Notes: generated by a model not told the origin, from the letters alone. Counted from the stretch's first letter, positions 1-17,349 are shown. The stretch is DNA of 24,000 bases from Zobellella sp. DQSA1 (GCF_041950555.1 NZ_CP169531.1:2970560-2994559), one strand, 5' to 3'. A program made the numbers and translations.

Positions 1-196
1 CGCCCCGCAGCCGCCTGTTCACCAGGGCGGCCAACTGGTCCAGCTCGGACGGGCTCGGCTGGTATTCCGGCCAGGCCAGCAGAAAGCTCTGCGGCTTGCC
101 CAGCACATGGCACAGCAACACGTCCGCATCCAGGGCGGGCGACTCCCCCCCCGCCAGTTGCTCGCGCAGCCGTTGGCGCAGCTCGGCCAGGGTCAT
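1..196 (-). CDS. prmC: Release-factor glutamine methyltransferase PrmC/HemK, N-terminal ~65 codons (partial, runs off the window start)
   Basis: My translation of the minus strand from ATG 196..194 gives [65 protein letters not shown]. This matches the PrmC N-terminal pattern (SPxLDAxxLLxHVLG, RR..GEP region). The start overlaps the prfA stop (TAATG), and the prfA-prmC order is conserved. Confidence 0.8.
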   Translation of the reverse strand, partial: MTLAELRQRLREQLAGGESPALDADVLLCHVLGKPQSFLLAWPEYQPSPSELDQLAALVNRRLRG

Positions 197-4384: not shown

Positions 4385-5332
4385 GTGCCCGACATGAAGC
4401 TGTTTGCTGGTAATGCAACGCCGGAACTCGCCCAACGTATCGCCGATCGTCTCTTTATCAAACTGAGTGCTGCCGATGTCGGCCGCTTCAGTGACGGCGA
4501 AATCAGCGTACAAATCAACGAAAATGTACGTGGCGGCGATGTCTTCATCATCCAGTCCACCTGCGCACCGACCAACGATAACCTGATGGAACTGATCGTG
4601 ATGGTGGATGCCCTGCGCCGAGCCTCCGCCGGTCGTATTACCGCCGTTATCCCCTACTTTGGCTATGCTCGCCAGGACCGCCGCGTGCGCTCCGCCCGGG
4701 TACCGATTACCGCCAAGGTCGTGGCCGACTTCCTGTCCAGCGTGGGCGTTGACCGGGTACTGACCGTCGACCTGCATGCCGAACAGATCCAGGGTTTCTT
4801 CGATGTACCGGTGGACAACGTGTTCGGCACGCCGGTGCTGCTGGAAGACATGAAAGCCAAGAACCTGCACAACGCCGTGGTGGTCTCCCCCGATATCGGC
4901 GGTGTAGTGCGGGCCCGAGCCGTGGCCAAGTTGCTGGATGAAACCGATATCGCCATCATCGACAAGCGCCGTCCTCGTGCCAACGTGTCCCAGGTGATGC
5001 ATCTGATCGGTGATGTGGAAGGCCGTGACTGCGTGATCGTGGACGATATGATCGACACCGGCGGCACCCTGTGCAAGGCCGCCGAAGCCCTGAAGAACCA
5101 CGGCGCCAAGCGCGTGTTCGCTTACGCCACCCACGCCGTGTTCTCCGGCAATGCCGCCCAGAACATCAAGGACTCGGTGATTGACGAGGTGATCATCACC
5201 GACTCCATCCCGCTGACTCCGGAAATCGAAGCCCTGGCCAAGGTTAAGCAGCTGTCCCTGTCCGGCATGCTGGCCGAAGCCATTCGCCGCATCAGCAACG
5301 AAGAGTCCATCTCCGCCATGTTCGAGCACTAA
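4385..5332 (+). CDS. prs: Ribose-phosphate pyrophosphokinase (PRPP synthetase)
   Basis: Very high identity to E. coli Prs along the whole length (..[30 protein letters not shown]). Alignment with the E. coli N-terminus MPDMKLF puts the start at GTG 4385, with GAGG 9 nt upstream. ATG 4394 is the alternative. The upstream in-frame extension to 4247 has no homology. Confidence 0.95.
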
Positions 5333-5349: not shown

Positions 5350-5378
5350 AAAAAGCCCGCGAATCCGCGGGCTTTTTT
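5350..5378. terminator. Bidirectional rho-independent terminator between prs and the TauE-family gene
   Basis: AAAAA-GCCCGCG-aatc-CGCGGGC-TTTTTT. This is a perfect 7-bp GC stem with a 4-nt loop, an A-run on the left and a T-run on the right. Confidence 0.85.
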
Positions 5379-5384
5379 GTGTTT

Positions 5385-5433
5385 GGGATTCGGGATTCGG
5401 GATTCGGGATTCGGGATTCGGGATTCGGGATTC
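5385..5433. repeat. Perfect tandem heptamer array (GGGATTC)x7
   Basis: Units start at 5385, 5392, 5399, 5406, 5413, 5420 and 5427, with no substitutions. Confidence 0.98.
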
Positions 5434-5450
5434 ACAGTGAGTGTATCAGT

Positions 5451-5504
5451 CCCCAGTCCCCAGTCCCCAGTCCCCAGTCCCCAGTCCCCAGTCCCCAGTC
5501 CCCA
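5451..5504. repeat. Perfect tandem heptamer array (CCCCAGT)x7 plus a partial eighth unit CCCCA
   Basis: Units start at 5451, 5458, 5465, 5472, 5479, 5486 and 5493, and the partial unit spans 5500-5504. The array ends 2 nt before the stop codon (5507-5509) of the minus-strand TauE-family gene. Confidence 0.98.
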
Positions 5505-5506
5505 AA

Positions 5507-6244
5507 TTACCAATAGAACCGCACAAAGTAGTAACCGCTCAGGCCGATGCCAAACAGCACTATGGTCCAGGCCAGCAGCCGGGGCTTTATCCATACCAGC
5601 AGCCGGGCACCCAGCTTGCCCCCGACCAGATACCCCAGCGCCAGCACCAGGCAGGCCCGCCAGTGCACCAGTCCGGACAGGGAATACACCAGGATGGTGG
5701 CGCCGCTGGCCAGCATCGACAGATACAGCTTGATGGCGTGCTGCTGCAGGTTGGATCCCATCCTCAGCTGGCCGGTCAACGCCATCAGCAATACCCCCAG
5801 GCCACCACCGAAGAAGCCGCCGTAAAAGGCACCGCCCAGCAACAGTGGCCAAGCCCGGCGTTTCATGTCGAGCGGCCCTTCGAAACCGGAGCGGCTCAGC
5901 AGTTGGCGGGCATAGAGCAGGCTCACCGTCAGCAGCAGCCAGGGTACCAGGTAGTTGAAGCTGTCGGCATGGAACTGCACCAGCGCCAAAGCCCCCAGTC
6001 CGCCACCGGCCAGGCCGATGCCGGTCAGTGCCAACCAGGGGCCGCTGCCGAGCTGGCGACGCATGCCCCAGAAGGCACTGGCATAGCCGGGCCAGGAAGC
6101 CACACTGGCGGTAGCCACCGCACCGGTGCTGGGTACCCCCGTAGCCAGCAGCGCCGGCAGGGTCAAGAAGAGGCCGCCACCGGCCAGGGCATTGAGCACC
6201 CCGGCGAGCAGGGCCCAGCCGAGCAGTTCGTACATAAGAAGCAT
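5507..6244 (-). CDS. TauE/SafE (DUF81) family anion-exporter-type membrane protein
   Basis: A polytopic hydrophobic protein with Gly-rich transmembrane helices (LNALAGGGLFLTLPALL.., GGAFYGGFFGGGLGVLLMA) typical of TauE/SafE. The start is chosen at ATG 6244 (MLLMYELLG); ATG 6235 is also possible. The track start at 6301 adds a non-hydrophobic extension with no support. Confidence 0.7.
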   Translation of the reverse strand: MLLMYELLGWALLAGVLNALAGGGLFLTLPALLATGVPSTGAVATASVASWPGYASAFWGMRRQLGSGPWLALTGIGLAGGGLGALALVQFHADSFNYLVPWLLLTVSLLYARQLLSRSGFEGPLDMKRRAWPLLLGGAFYGGFFGGGLGVLLMALTGQLRMGSNLQQHAIKLYLSMLASGATILVYSLSGLVHWRACLVLALGYLVGGKLGARLLVWIKPRLLAWTIVLFGIGLSGYYFVRFYW

Positions 6245-10619: not shown

Positions 10620-11327
10620 ATGTTAGCCAAGAGTGATCTGCTCTTGACGCTTGATCTTATTTCCAAGTGCCTGGAGATAAGAAGTCAAGAGAACCTCAAG
10701 GAACTAAAGGACACCCTAAGCAAAGAGCTGGGCATCAGTTCCATGGTTGCCGGTCGTGTATGTCGGTACACCAAAGTTGAAACCGGATATTTTTTTGGCA
10801 TAAGTGAAGAATGGAGTAGGTTATATATAGAAAACAATTATTCCATGGTGGATCCTGTATTTAATTTATCTATCAGATCCTCTGTCCCCTTCCTGTGGGC
10901 GACTGCTTACTCCCGCGCTGGCCATAACAGTAACGAGTTTATCCAACGCGCCAGGGATTTCTCTCTGATGGAAGGCATTTGCTATGCACCAAAGGATTAC
11001 TCAATGGTGGCCGATACCACAGTGGTATCGCTTGGAAATGGAAAAACGCCTTTAGATCGTATGCAAGTCGAGATTATCAAGCATCTCATCCCCCATATTG
11101 CTGAAACCCTGATGCGGCCTTCCCTGTGGAACAATCCAAGATTAACGCCAAAAGAGATAGAAGTTATCAAATGGTGTGCTCATGGCAAGTCTTACTGGGA
11201 GATTTCCCTGGTCATGTCCATTTCCGAGCGAACGGTAAAATTTCATATGAATAATATCTTCAAAAAGCTGGATGTCCTGAATAAGGCCCAGGCTGTAGCC
11301 AGATGCATGAGCTTGGGATACGTGTAG
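10620..11327 (+). CDS. LuxR-family transcriptional regulator with an autoinducer-binding domain and no adjacent luxI (LuxR solo)
   Basis: 235 aa. The C-terminus is a GerE/LuxR helix-turn-helix (HTH) domain (LTPKEIEVIKWCAHGKSYWEISLVMSISERTVKFHMNNIFKKLDV). The N-terminal domain carries W65, Y69, D78, P79, W93 and G119, and the first five have exactly the spacing of TraR W57/Y61/D70/P71/W85. AGGGGA lies 7 nt upstream of the ATG. Confidence 0.85.
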   Translation: MLAKSDLLLTLDLISKCLEIRSQENLKELKDTLSKELGISSMVAGRVCRYTKVETGYFFGISEEWSRLYIENNYSMVDPVFNLSIRSSVPFLWATAYSRAGHNSNEFIQRARDFSLMEGICYAPKDYSMVADTTVVSLGNGKTPLDRMQVEIIKHLIPHIAETLMRPSLWNNPRLTPKEIEVIKWCAHGKSYWEISLVMSISERTVKFHMNNIFKKLDVLNKAQAVARCMSLGYV

Positions 11328-13670: not shown

Positions 13671-13747
13671 GGCTATGTAGCTCAGTTGGTTAGAGCACAT
13701 CACTCATAATGATGGGGTCGCAGGTTCGAATCCCGCCATAGCCACCA
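13671..13747 (+). tRNA. tRNA-Met (CAU), elongator type
   Basis: GGCTATGTAGCTCAGTTGGTTAGAGCACATCACTCATAATGATGGGGTCGCAGGTTCGAATCCCGCCATAGCCACCA. The cloverleaf is readable, the anticodon loop is CTCATAA, and the CCA end is encoded. It is close to E. coli metT/metU. Confidence 0.95.
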
Positions 13748-13753
13748 CTCTGC

Positions 13754-13828
13754 TGGGGTATCGCCAAGCGGTAAGGCAGCGGGTTTTGATCCCGCCATTC
13801 CCAGGTTCGAATCCTGGTACCCCAGCCA
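13754..13828 (+). tRNA. tRNA-Gln (UUG)
   Basis: TGGGGTATCGCCAAGCGGTAAGGCAGCGGGTTTTGATCCCGCCATTCCCAGGTTCGAATCCTGGTACCCCAGCCA. The anticodon stem is GCGGG/CCCGC with loop TTTTGAT, and the CCA end is encoded. Confidence 0.95.
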
Positions 13829-13831
13829 TAT

Positions 13832-13906
13832 TATCTGTCAAGCTGGATTAACAGCGGGTTTTGCTCCCGGCCTCAGCGCCCAGGTTCGGAACTCGGTAAC
13901 CAGGCT
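13832..13906 (+). pseudogene. Decayed tRNA-Gln copy in the operon spacer
   Basis: It aligns by eye to the intact tRNA-Gln. CAGCGGGTTTTG (anticodon stem and loop) is identical and CCCAGGTTCG of the T-arm is retained. The acceptor stem, D-arm and T-stem complement are broken (..TTCGGAACTCGGTAACCAGGCTA). Confidence 0.5.
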
Positions 13907-13954
13907 ATTTTTTAAATGGCTGGCAATTGTGTTATAACTGCCAACCATCACTGT

Positions 13955-14029
13955 TGGGGTATCGCCAAGCGGTAAGGCAGCGGGTTTTGATCCCGCCATT
14001 CCCAGGTTCGAATCCTGGTACCCCAGCCA
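13955..14029 (+). tRNA. tRNA-Gln (UUG), identical to the copy at 13754
   Basis: 75/75 identical sequence, with the CCA end encoded. Confidence 0.95.
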
Positions 14030-14039
14030 TTTTTCATAA

Positions 14040-14107
14040 ATGGTTGAAGAAAAGCAGAGTTTGGCACCGGCATTTATGACCTGGTTCGTAGCTCGGCACT
14101 ACAGCCA
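14040..14107 (+). pseudogene. Second, more degraded tRNA-Gln-derived spacer
   Basis: AAGCAGAGTTTGGCACCGGCATT...CCTGGTTCGTAGCTCGGCACTACAGCCA parallels AGGCAGCGGGTTTTGATCCCGCCATT...CCAGGTTCGAATCCTGGTACCCCAGCCA. No cloverleaf can be drawn. Confidence 0.4.
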
Positions 14108-14141
14108 TTTAAACACCATTGAGGCGACTCAATGCTTATGT

Positions 14142-14218
14142 GGCTATGTAGCTCAGTTGGTTAGAGCACATCACTCATAATGATGGGGTCGCAGGTTCGA
14201 ATCCCGCCATAGCCACCA
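14142..14218 (+). tRNA. tRNA-Met (CAU), identical to the copy at 13671
   Basis: 77/77 identical sequence. Confidence 0.95.
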
Positions 14219-14225
14219 CTCTTTT

Positions 14226-14310
14226 GCGGGAGTGGCGAAATTGGTAGACGCACCAGATTTAGGTTCTGGCGCCGCAAGGTGTGCGAGTTCAAGTCTCGCC
14301 TCCCGCACCA
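14226..14310 (+). tRNA. leuW: tRNA-Leu (UAG), class II with a long variable arm
   Basis: GCGGGAGTGGCGAAATTGGTAGACGCACCAGATTTAGGTTCTGGCGCCGCAAGGTGTGCGAGTTCAAGTCTCGCCTCCCGCACCA. The anticodon loop is TTTAGGT. It matches my recollection of E. coli leuW. Confidence 0.95.
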
Positions 14311-14318
14311 TTAAAAAT

Positions 14319-14393
14319 TGGGGTATCGCCAAGCGGTAAGGCAGCGGGTTTTGATCCCGCCATTCCCAGGTTCGAATCCTGGTACCCCAGCCA
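14319..14393 (+). tRNA. tRNA-Gln (UUG), third identical copy
   Basis: 75/75 identical to 13754-13828. Confidence 0.95.
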
Positions 14394-14432: not shown

Positions 14433-14448
14433 GTTTCTGGAATTCGTG

Positions 14449-14495
14449 ATTAGGGATTGGGCAATCCCGAGTCCCTAATCCCCAGTCCCCGCCCC
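14449..14495 (-). repeat. REP-like G-tract plus palindrome element abutting the ubiF stop codon
   Basis: Read on the minus strand (ubiF sense): GGGGCGGGGACTGGGGATTAGGGACTCGGGATTGCCCAATCCCTAAT. It contains GGGACTGGGGA (the reverse complement of the 5451-5504 array unit) and the palindromes GGGATT/AATCCC and ATTAGGGA/TCCCTAAT. It ends 1 nt from the ubiF stop (14496-14498). Confidence 0.8.
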
Positions 14496-15665
14496 TTACA
14501 GCCCCATGGCGTATTTCATTACCTGGTTTTTCAGCGGGCCGCTGTTCTGGGCGGCTTTCAATCCCAGATTGCGCAGCAACTTGAGCGGCAGCAGATCGTT
14601 GCTGAACGCCTGATAGAAGAGATCCATCGCCCCCTGCATCAGCAGGTTGTCGGGTCGGCGCCGGCACTGGTAGCGCTCAAGCAACTCGGCCGAGGCAATA
14701 TCCTGGCCGCCTTCCACCGCCTGGTGCATCAGTTCGCTCAGGCAGGCCACGTCCTTGAACCCCAGGTTTACCCCCTGCCCCGCCAGTGGATTGATGGTAT
14801 GGGCTGCGTCGCCCAACAGCACCACGGCGCCTTTCAGATACTGGTTGGCGTGCCGCCGGCGCAGCGGAAAATGACCCTTTTCCAGCACCCGGAAGGCACC
14901 CAGCCGGGCCGGAAAATGCACGGCGACCTGCTGCGCCAGTGCCATCCGGTCCAACGCGGCCAACTCCCGGATCCGCACCTTCTGGTCGTACCATACCAGG
15001 GAGCCGTGACGCTGGCCCAAGGGCAGAAAGGCCCGGGGGCCACTGGGGCAGAATTGCTGCCAGGTCGTCTCGGCTTCCAGGGCATCGCCCTCGATGCTGA
15101 TCAGCATGCAATGCTGGGCATAGTCCCAGGCGGTGACACCGATGCCCGCAAACTGGCGGGTGCGCGACTCGGCCCCGTCACAGGCCAGCACCAGCCGGGC
15201 CTGCAGCCGCTGGCCATTGTCCAGGGCCAGCTCGGTACCGGTGGGGGTTGGTGCAAGCCCGGCCAGCCCATTGGGGCAGTCGAGCACCACATTGCGCCAC
15301 TGGGCCAGCGCCTGCCACAGCCCGAGCTGGATCACCCGGTTTTCCACCATAAAGCCGAGGTGGTCACAGTCCAGCTCCCGGGCCTCGAAGCGGGTGCCGA
15401 ACCCCTGCCACTCGCTCGCTTCCAGGGCGCGGTAGGGCCAGGCCCGCATGGCGACAATGGCATCCCAGGCCCCGGCCTGCTGCAACAGGCGCACCGAGGC
15501 GGCGCTGATCGCGGACACCCGCAGATCAAATTCCTGCCCGGGTTCGAAGGCGGCGGGCGCCCTGGCTTCGATAACCCGGATACTCAGTCCGCTCGGCGCC
15601 AGCAGCGCCGCCGCCAGGGCACCGACCATACCGCCGCCGATGATGGCGACATCACAGTGTTCCAT
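14496..15665 (-). CDS. ubiF: Ubiquinone biosynthesis flavin monooxygenase UbiF (2-octaprenyl-3-methyl-6-methoxy-1,4-benzoquinol hydroxylase)
   Basis: The start is chosen at ATG 15665 (MEHCDVAIIGGGMVG, a Rossmann FAD motif) with GGAGG 8 nt upstream. It shows strong collinear similarity to E. coli UbiF (DLRVSAISAASV, TWQQFCPSGPRAFLPL, SLVWYD, GDAAHTINPLAGQGVNLG). It sits next to the Met/Leu/Gln tRNA operon and miaB, as in E. coli. Confidence 0.9.
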   Translation of the reverse strand: MEHCDVAIIGGGMVGALAAALLAPSGLSIRVIEARAPAAFEPGQEFDLRVSAISAASVRLLQQAGAWDAIVAMRAWPYRALEASEWQGFGTRFEARELDCDHLGFMVENRVIQLGLWQALAQWRNVVLDCPNGLAGLAPTPTGTELALDNGQRLQARLVLACDGAESRTRQFAGIGVTAWDYAQHCMLISIEGDALEAETTWQQFCPSGPRAFLPLGQRHGSLVWYDQKVRIRELAALDRMALAQQVAVHFPARLGAFRVLEKGHFPLRRRHANQYLKGAVVLLGDAAHTINPLAGQGVNLGFKDVACLSELMHQAVEGGQDIASAELLERYQCRRRPDNLLMQGAMDLFYQAFSNDLLPLKLLRNLGLKAAQNSGPLKNQVMKYAMGL

Positions 15666-15827: not shown

Positions 15828-17258
15828 ATGAGCAAAAAACTTCATATCAAAACCTGGGGCTGTCAGATGAACGAATACGATTCATCCAAGATGGCCGATC
15901 TGCTGGACGCCACCCACGGCTACCAGCTCACCGAGGAAGCGGAACACGCCGACGTGCTGCTGCTCAACACCTGCTCCATCCGCGAAAAGGCGCAGGAGAA
16001 GGTGTTCCATCAGTTGGGCCGCTGGCGTCCATTGAAGGAAGCCAACCCCGGGCTGGTGATCGGTGTCGGCGGCTGTGTCGCCTCCCAGGAAGGTGATGCC
16101 ATTCGCGCCCGCGCTCCCTTTGTCGACATCGTGTTCGGCCCCCAGACCCTGCACCGGCTGCCGGCGATGATCAAATCCGTACTCGAAGGCAACGGCGCCC
16201 AGGTGGATGTGGCCTTTCCGGAAATCGAGAAATTCGACAACCTGCCCGAGCCCAGGGCCGAAGGCGCCACCGCCTTCGTGTCCATCATGGAAGGCTGTTC
16301 CAAGTACTGTTCCTTCTGCGTGGTGCCCTACACCCGCGGCGAGGAAGTAAGCCGCCCCCTGGACGATGTGCTCTATGAAATCGCCCAGCTCGCCGAGCAG
16401 GGCGTGCGCGAAGTCAACCTGCTGGGCCAGAACGTCAACGCCTACCGGGGCGGGACCTTTGATGGCGACATCTGCAGCTTCGCCGATCTGCTGCGGCTGG
16501 TGGCGGCCATCGACGGCATCGACCGCATCCGCTACACCACCAGCCACCCCATCGAGTTTACCGACGACATCATCGAGGTATACAAGGATACCCCCGAGGT
16601 GGTCAGCTTCCTGCACCTACCGGTACAGAGCGGCTCGGATCGCATCCTTACCCTGATGAAACGGCCGCACACCGCGCTGGAGTACAAGTCCAAGATCCGC
16701 AGGCTGCGCGCCGCCCGGCCCGACATTACCATCAGCTCCGACTTTATCGTGGGCTTCCCCGGTGAAGACGCCGACGACTTCGAAAAAACCATGAAACTCA
16801 TCGAGGACCTGGGCTTCGACATGAGCTTCAGCTTTATCTTCAGCCCCCGCCCCGGTACCCCGGCCGCCGACCTGCCCGACGATGTGCCGATGGACGAGAA
16901 AAAGGAACGGCTGTACCGGCTGCAGAATGTGATCAACCACCAGGCCCAGCAGATCAGCCGGCAGATGCTGGGCTCGACCCAGCGCATCCTGGTGGAAGGT
17001 CCCTCCAAGCTCAACCCCATGGAGCTGCGCGGTCGCACCGAAAACAACCGGGTGGTCAACTTCGAAGGGCCGCACCACCTTATCGGCGGCTTCGCCGATG
17101 TGGAAATTACCGAAGTAATGCCCCACAGCCTGCGCGGCAAGTTCCTGCGTGACGAGGCCGCAATGGGCCTGCGGGTACAGGTGTCTCCCCGGAGCATCCT
17201 CGCTCGTCGCCCGGACGGCGTGGCCGATGAAGTGGGTGTGGCGACCTTTACCCCTTAA
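15828..17258 (+). CDS. miaB: tRNA-i6A37 methylthiotransferase MiaB (radical SAM)
   Basis: 476 aa starting [19 protein letters not shown], with the radical-SAM motif [15 protein letters not shown] and a C-terminal TRAM domain. Confidence 0.96.
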
Positions 17259-17260
17259 CG

Positions 17261-17332
17261 GCCGGGAGCCGGGACTGGGGATAGGGGATTGGAAGATCCC
17301 GGCCAATCCCCTGCCCCCAATCACCAACCCCC
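17261..17332 (+). repeat. REP-like G-tract plus palindrome element in the miaB-ybeZ spacer (same family as 14449-14495)
   Basis: GCCGGGAGCCGGGACTGGGGATAGGGGATTGGaagatcccggCCAATCCCCTGCCCCCAATCACCAACCCCC. GGGACTGGGGA spans 17271-17281. A perfect 9-bp inverted repeat GGGGATTGG (17284-17292) / CCAATCCCC (17303-17311) has a 10-nt loop. Confidence 0.8.
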
Positions 17333-17349
17333 GATATTCAGGAGTTACC

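Follow-up and report, generated by a model that had tools for sequence, protein, structure and literature searches.

Convergent G-rich heptamer arrays between prs and a tauE-family gene of Zobellella sp. DQSA1, a probable slippage product of a known repeat class

In Zobellella sp. DQSA1 (GCF_041950555.1), the ribose-phosphate pyrophosphokinase gene prs and a minus-strand gene for a TauE/SafE-family membrane protein (hereafter tauE) converge on a short intergenic spacer that holds two perfect tandem arrays of different heptamers (Table 1). The window analyzed here is a stretch of 24,000 nucleotides (NZ_CP169531.1:2970560-2994559), and positions are counted from its first letter. The prs stop codon lies at 5330-5332, and array 1 begins 53 nt later, just past the prs terminator; the tauE stop codon (minus strand) lies at 5507-5509, 2 nt from the edge of array 2. 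A first-pass annotation, made from the sequence alone, had set the element between the prs terminator hairpin and the tauE stop codon, and the terminator scan, Pfam, and the coordinates confirm this position. The nearest named relatives by TauE were Zobellella sp. An-6 (91% identity), Oceanimonas sp. GK1 (82%), and Oceanisphaera, and the gene order lolB-ispE-prs / tauE / pth-ychF is identical in An-6 and GK1.

The terminator hairpin between prs and the element is kept in relatives. Because its flanking A and T runs are symmetric, it is plausibly bidirectional and common to prs and tauE, although its use on the minus strand goes beyond the plus-strand call; a terminator that also served tauE would place the arrays inside the tauE 3' untranslated region (3'UTR). 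An Rfam scan of the window returned six tRNAs only and no known RNA family at the element. The tRNA genes are all on the plus strand (13671-14393; Met, Gln, Gln, Met, Leu, Gln), with duplicated Met-Gln units, and the An-6 counterpart of this cluster contains a tandem repeat with a 111-nt period (4.6 copies; L001 6679-7192) whose consensus looks tRNA derived. A small open reading frame across the arrays was considered and rejected, as only repeat-encoded peptides would result.

Read directly from the sequence, every copy in both arrays is exact, which bears out the twin perfect heptamer arrays and the 17-nt spacer of the first-pass annotation. Tandem Repeats Finder gave 7.0 copies (100% identity) for array 1 and 8.3 copies (100% identity) for array 2, the latter in the register CAGTCCC from 5447; the last four spacer bases, CAGT, are already in the register of array 2. 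With 7.0 copies in array 1 and 7.7 to 8.3 in array 2, the copy numbers, taken as assembled in the window sequence, are similar and not strictly equal. The distance from 5385 to 5448 is 63 nt, or 9 × 7, so a single 7-nt phase runs throughout the 119-nt element. By chance, a run of 42 consecutive matches between positions i and i + 7 would be expected about 9e-21 times in 24 kb, and among the periods scanned in the window (4 to 12), none but 7 gave a comparable tract.

Table 1. Features of the prs-tauE intergenic element and of two related elements in the 24,000-nucleotide window
Feature	Position	Strand	Basis and remarks
prs, ribose-phosphate pyrophosphokinase, upstream convergent gene	4385..5332	+	Pfam Pribosyltran_N, Pribosyl_synth, Pribosyltran
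Intrinsic terminator AAAAAGCCCGCGAATCCGCGGGCTTTTTT	about 5350..5378		Plus-strand call by terminator scan; A-run before, T-run after
Array 1, (GGGATTC)x7, fits GGGANTN	5385..5433	+	5' hairpin arm in plus-strand RNA; sequence, fold, G4Hunter 1.14 (plus strand)
Spacer/loop ACAGTGAGTGTATCAGT, 17 nt	5434..5450		Separates the arrays; core CAGTGAGTGTAT common to sister lineage; contains GTGAG
Array 2, C-rich, (CCCCAGT)x7 (5451-5499) then CCCCA (to 5504)	5451..5504	-	Minus strand (tauE sense) = (ACTGGGG)n, equivalent to (GGGACTG)n; G4Hunter 2.24 (minus strand)
tauE/safE-family membrane protein gene, downstream convergent	5507..6235	-	Pfam PF01925
Degenerate element 2	14446..14495		G arm GTGATTAGGGATTGGG, loop CAAT, C arm CCCGAGT CCCTAAT CCCCAGT CCCCGCCCC; predicted fold -22.4 kcal/mol
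Degenerate element 3	17264..17333		GGGAGCC GGGACTG GGGATAG GGGATTG then CCAATCC CCTGCCC CCAATCA CCAACCC; predicted fold -42 kcal/mol, z -2.8

Plus-strand RNA of the element is predicted to form a hairpin of -90.1 kcal/mol (z -9.4 versus shuffles), in which GGGAUUC faces CAGUCCC with 6/7 positions paired per unit, counting one G-U; each unit has three G-C pairs, one A-U, one U-G, one U-A, and a single C-C mismatch, which yields seven 6-bp blocks. The hairpin predicted for minus-strand RNA is weaker (-81.3 kcal/mol, z -5.1; 5/7 positions paired per unit), with an A-C mismatch in place of the plus-strand wobble, and single-stranded DNA of the element has a predicted fold of -33 kcal/mol (z -4.5). 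Pairing of the arms in a 7-nt register, which the first-pass annotation had offered as a possible long imperfect hairpin, is thus predicted on both RNA strands. Elements at orthologous sites in relatives are also predicted to fold as hairpins with a G-rich 5' arm. The twin-array hairpin was considered as an intrinsic terminator and rejected, since no U-run follows it (what follows is AAUUACC in plus-strand RNA and AAACACAAAAAA in minus-strand RNA).

The arrays had also been called quadruplex capable, and G4 prediction, proposed at that stage as a check, agrees: array 1 on the plus strand and array 2 on the minus strand both match G4 motifs (G4Hunter scores in Table 1). In circular dichroism (CD) experiments, (GGGGACT)4 and (GGGACTG)3GGG form G4 in K+ (T1/2 above 74°C, and above 95°C for four-G tracts), and (CCCCAGT)3CCCC and (AGTCCCC)4 form i-motifs up to pH 6.5 (PMC4692102). 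Both strands of array 2 match these oligonucleotides exactly. For array 1, the nearest oligonucleotide in that study is (GGGAATC)4, with GGGATTC itself outside the set.

Those oligonucleotides come from the description of G-rich heptamer repeats by Rehm et al. (2015; PMC4692102), which covers (GGGAATC)n / (GGGANTN)n in Xanthomonas and GGGGA(C/T)T in Nostoc PCC 7120. The class numbers about 90 to 190 dispersed sites per genome, with the G-rich strand being the coding strand 0 to 50 nt downstream of a stop codon (PMC4692102). Xanthomonas has about 185 repeat sites per genome (89 to 93% intergenic) and 70 to 75 convergent pairs per genome, with one array on each strand and the capacity to form a stem-loop, and its commonest array size is four repeat units; in Nostoc PCC 7120, few repeats are paired as inverted repeats (PMC4692102). 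Related species have repeats at shared intergenic sites, variable in length and sequence, and the class was not associated with mobile elements or surface-structure genes, nor was a function found for it (PMC4692102); no functional study of the class later than 2015 was found in the literature searched. As relayed by papers that cite Mrazek et al. (2007), heptanucleotides outnumber every other class of long repeat in many bacterial genomes, and the 7-nt step was proposed to reflect the DNA segment that the polymerase holds.

Judged by its sequence, the element is a member of this (GGGANTN)n / GGGGA(C/T)T class in convergent-pair form, in a new lineage. Its units, GGGATTC (seven copies on the plus strand) and GGGACTG, equal to GGGGACT (7.7 copies on the minus strand), are all exact; both fit GGGANTN, and the minus-strand GGGGACT is exactly one Nostoc unit. 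The arrays are tandem and intergenic, the G-rich strand on the tauE side is the tauE sense strand and begins 2 nt past the stop codon, and plus and minus arrays form a convergent pair across the 17-nt spacer that could adopt a hairpin, predicted on both strands, or G4. As in the species studied by Rehm et al., arrays occur at shared intergenic sites in related species and differ there in length and sequence. Unlike the Xanthomonas members, the two arms have different units and both are perfect, at 7 and about 8 copies (the Xanthomonas mode being 4), and unlike the earlier hosts, the present one belongs to a new lineage, Zobellella-like Aeromonadaceae, in which abundance is seen in 24 kb only.

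STRR sequences are defined as a hallmark of heterocystous cyanobacteria, and the cyanobacterial STRR1 heptamer, CCCCA(A/G)T, was reportedly the subject of work by Mazel et al. in 1990. Array 2 is a perfect run of the STRR1 variant CCCCAGT. This resemblance, pointed out in the first-pass annotation, stands up, since CCCCAGT, once complemented and rotated, matches the Nostoc unit GGGGA(C/T)T (PMC4692102); unlike STRR1 of cyanobacteria, the unit here makes up one arm of a convergent pair in a gammaproteobacterium. Its occurrence in such a host had been called unexpected, a view that finds no support: repeats of this kind are documented in Xanthomonas (PMC4692102), and our scan found matches in Aeromonas, Oceanisphaera, many Lysobacterales, and at least five other phyla.

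That scan, for GGGATTNGGGATTNGGGATT in one genome per species, gave at least 120 loci totaling 872 kb (L006-L125). Among the matches listed are many Lysobacterales (Xanthomonas, Lysobacter, Dokdonella, and Rhodanobacter), Nostocales and other cyanobacteria, Acidobacteriota, Chloroflexota, Planctomycetota, Bacteroidota, Oceanisphaera psychrotolerans, and an Aeromonas metagenome-assembled genome (MAG) with 14.6 copies of GGGATTC. The array of this MAG (L033 3800-3935) opens with a run of about 10 G, passes through GGGGAGT and GGGGAAT units, and ends in (GGGATTC)x14, with no C-rich partner nearby; it is an unpaired, longer version of array 1. The 872 kb of loci listed contain at least 185 perfect period-7 arrays, at least 80 of them without the selection motif, and no other period exceeds 14 arrays. 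Where G-rich and C-rich arrays lie at most 150 nt apart, 31 pairs run G-then-C and 2 run C-then-G (among the matches listed; binomial p 1.3e-7), and these pairs are drawn from Proteobacteria, Cyanobacteria, Acidobacteriota, Chloroflexota, Planctomycetota, and Bacteroidota. Arm complementarity is 5.84 paired positions per unit within loci versus 5.46 across loci (0.2% of shuffles reach it); we discount this excess as a sign of hairpin selection because each lineage prefers its own units.

At the orthologous prs-tauE site, the spacer was seen empty, with a short GTGAGGG/CCTCAC hairpin, or with twin arrays of other copy number. In the relative with the empty site, only 18 nt separate the terminator from the tauE stop codon, and the element is dispensable in that sense. 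The short heptamer hairpin occurs in An-6, in GK1, and on two further contigs; whole units separate GK1 from a near-identical Oceanimonas strain, with one versus three GTGAGGG in the G arm and four versus two units in the C arm. In a sister lineage (nine independent sequencing runs; tauE DNA 84% identical), both units and the spacer core CAGTGAGTGTAT are present, and the C-rich arm has 2 units in three runs, while in six runs the contig breaks after at least 4 units. The comparison of related strains proposed with the first-pass annotation thus found variable copy number and one empty site, and the copy-number instability it had anticipated appears as whole-unit differences among relatives. 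A meaning for the equal copy numbers of the two arrays, also suggested then, is not supported, given the sister lineage, whose two arms have 2 and at least 4 units, and the 31 other twin pairs, in which arm lengths are uncorrelated (rho -0.17, among the matches listed).

A recombination tract that would explain the sharing with the sister lineage was looked for in the pth-tauE identity profile, which has no sharp break. The arrays of both lineages are perfect despite about 15% divergence of the flanking coding sequence, which points to continuing homogenization by slippage. The signature of spacer plus array flanks had no match in the metagenome collection and no second copy in the window. The spacer includes GTGAG, which also forms the core of the GTGAGGG units in the Oceanimonas and An-6 hairpins at this site (L001/L002, about 10740-10800); to judge from these letters it may be left over from an earlier hairpin, the present arrays having replaced the sequence on either side.

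The prs-tauE spacer of Oceanisphaera avium is 410 nt long (L131 3730-4139) and contains several REP-like repeats (GAGATACCGGGGCGAGCCCG.TATGACGGC...) and a second terminator-like hairpin; it holds no heptamer arrays. The short-read tauE contigs of the sister lineage (Logan, L127-L136) all end about 30 nt into a heptamer array. Such arrays systematically break assemblies at k=31 and will be underreported in short-read genomes and MAGs.

Three elements in the 24-kb window are built alike, with a G-rich arm of heptamers joined through a short loop to a C-rich one. Besides the prs-tauE pair, one is bounded by the terminator of the tRNA operon and by the stop codon (14496-14498) of an FAD-binding gene on the minus strand, and another lies between the stop codon of a miaB-like gene (17256-17258) and the phoH start. 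GK1 has elements at both orthologous sites, with a similar one at the miaB-phoH site, including (AATCCCT)x6 after three GGGAATG-type units. An-6 has (GAAGCTA)x9.4 at the miaB-phoH site and, between the prs stop codon and the terminator, a GAAAGCT-type array of about eight imperfect units (GAAAGCT/AGAAGCT/GGAAGCT); the former has neither G-tracts nor a complementary partner array, and the same is true of the latter, so heptamer expansion in this lineage needs neither quadruplex nor hairpin. The period of 7 is the sole one giving tracts in the window, An-6, and GK1. Per roughly 20 kb, two relatives have about two to three heptamer arrays or hairpins each, not all of them G-rich, compared with three per 24 kb in the window. 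The An-6 arrays (L001 3604-3683 and 10831-10888) belong to a different heptamer family, amplified at the same intergenic sites.

REP and BIME sequences of enterobacteria are imperfect palindromes in 3'UTRs or intercistronic regions, often between convergent genes and near terminators. Their hairpins are predicted to protect upstream mRNA, and a REP near a stop codon can interfere with translation termination. Each REP consists of one conserved unit, about 35 nt in length and bearing a GTAG-type head, that RAYT transposases disseminate. The element is REP-like in being an imperfect palindrome with a putative 3'UTR position and a predicted RNA hairpin, but REPs have no 7-nt internal periodicity or whole-unit slippage, and the features that define them are absent from the element; membership was rejected for lack of a conserved 20- to 40-nt unit with a GTAG head and because the heptamer arms differ from locus to locus. 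Contingency loci usually have repeat units of 1 to 5 nt within the reading frames or promoters of surface-structure genes, and the best-known heptanucleotide contingency repeat, neuO, lies inside the coding frame. The arrays share with them perfect short tandem repeats whose copy number changes by slippage, but the element is 3' of both neighboring genes. Another intergenic heptamer, the TAACTGA direct repeat of marine Beggiatoaceae and cyanobacteria (MacGregor 2015, PMC4679880), is likewise tandem, at 2 to many copies, and patchy across phyla; it differs in being A/T-rich and mostly upstream of start codons and in having no convergent complementary pairs (PMC4679880).

The element is probably a convergent heptamer pair of the known G-rich class, born by slippage from a small hairpin at the tauE 3' end and with a function that is at most modulatory. 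The intergenic position, G-rich sense strand, and convergent pairing that mark the class are all present. Judging from relatives, the space between the terminator and the tauE stop codon would at first have held a small, imperfectly paired hairpin whose 5' arm was rich in G and whose 3' arm was rich in C. Replication slippage, moving in 7-nt steps, would then have multiplied one unit of each arm, independently of the other arm, until there were 7 and about 8 perfect copies, and continuing slippage would keep the arrays uniform. A slippage origin is the best supported part of this account, given the whole-unit differences between strains, the polymorphic alleles of the sister lineage, the empty site, and the arrays that arose independently of unit in the same genomes. 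Slippage alone leaves two things unexplained, namely, the G-then-C polarity (31 versus 2, among the matches listed) and the retention of elements at orthologous sites across genera.

As for what the element might do, a tauE transcript would carry, in order, (ACUGGGG)n, the spacer, (GAAUCCC)n, and the terminator. With both arrays in the transcript, the tauE 3'UTR could take the form of an extended, imperfect hairpin with about 50 base pairs; alternatively, a quadruplex could form in the RNA of the first-transcribed array, from 2 nt past the tauE stop codon. Such a structure would most plausibly act as REPs do, as a barrier to 3' exonucleases or to read-through, and its nearness to the stop codon might make translation termination less efficient as well. 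Against a role for the hairpin, the tauE-sense hairpin is, in the predicted folds, the weaker one (5/7) and in competition with a very stable G4 motif. Any effect would be modulatory and dispensable rather than a switch, and it could be nil.

Taken to its limit, that last case makes the element a functionless by-product, in which neutral slippage microsatellites are merely tolerated at this intergenic spot, a reading we find possible but doubtful. It draws on the empty site in one relative, the rapid turnover of units and lengths among relatives, the uncorrelated arm lengths of other twin pairs and the period-7 excess whatever the unit (both among the matches listed), and the lack of any function found for the class (PMC4692102). 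Set against these, a G-then-C polarity of 31 to 2 (among the matches listed) is hard to get by unconstrained drift, and three orthologous intergenic sites keep hairpin-type elements across genera; within-locus arm complementarity is also slightly high (5.84 versus 5.46), although this is confounded by the lineages' preferred units. The polarity bears as well on a dedicated G4/i-motif element, in which a G4 on the nontemplate DNA or the incoming RNA would pause or terminate convergent transcription, since the G-then-C order (31 versus 2, among the matches listed) puts a G-rich nontemplate strand before polymerases from either side. Each gene has canonical G4 motifs on its sense strand, formation of G4 and i-motif in vitro is established for identical units (PMC4692102; this covers the array 2 units), and four units are the commonest Xanthomonas array size (PMC4692102). 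A pure quadruplex reading is nevertheless quite unlikely, weakened by an allele of the sister lineage in which the tauE sense strand has just two GGGG tracts and so falls short of an intramolecular G4, by relatives with GTGAGGG units (1 to 3 tracts per arm) or nothing at the site, by heptamer arrays incapable of G4 that expand equally well in the same lineage, and by the very stable predicted hairpin, which competes strongly with G4 in the paired layout. For prs transcripts, a strong intrinsic terminator precedes the arrays; the first-pass idea that each convergent transcript meets its own G-rich array first thus applies to tauE and fails for prs.

The remaining explanations carry far less weight with us. 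Insertion of a mobile miniature element of the MITE or REP-RAYT kind would fit a site that is empty in one relative and occupied in others and the overall inverted-repeat shape, yet it is very unlikely in view of the absence of terminal inverted repeats or target duplications beyond the arrays, the spacer-flank signature with 0 matches in the metagenome collection and no second copy in the window, the different units at other loci, and the lack of mobile-element association in the class (PMC4692102). False expansion or collapse of the repeats in assembly is an equally slim prospect: the short-read contigs of relatives do break exactly at the arrays, so the copy numbers of such arrays are error-prone, but independent sister-lineage assemblies from nine runs agree on the units and spacer core at the site, and comparable perfect heptamer arrays are present in finished genomes of relatives. 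A phase-variation (contingency) locus, with copy number toggling a neighboring gene, is hardly credible even with arrays that are perfect and polymorphic in copy number among relatives, because their position is 3' of both genes and overlaps no coding frame, promoter, or ribosome-binding site, and their neighbors are housekeeping and transport genes, not surface antigens; Rehm et al. concluded likewise for the class (PMC4692102). A bolder reading, which we consider unlikely, would make convergent pairs a functional module across phyla, either a two-way transcription insulator or a 3'-end RNA structure, with the 7-nt step as a molecular ruler set by a polymerase or binding protein; the conserved polarity (31 versus 2, among the matches listed) and the retention of sites while units turn over may provide a basis for it.

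A slippage-born member of the G-rich class remains our preferred account, and it extends the described repeat class to the Aeromonadaceae (Zobellella, Oceanimonas, Oceanisphaera, and Aeromonas) and corrects the impression that such heptamers are a cyanobacterial peculiarity. The element by itself is of little consequence, and its wider value lies in a clean natural allele series: the prs-tauE site in three states (empty, short hairpin, and long twin arrays) offers ready-made alleles for testing mRNA 3' ends, read-through between convergent genes, and slippage rates. These alleles address the question of why bacteria favor 7-nt tandem repeats and whether G-rich convergent pairs act at all. Should the cross-phylum module prove true, convergent pairs would be more than microsatellite noise.
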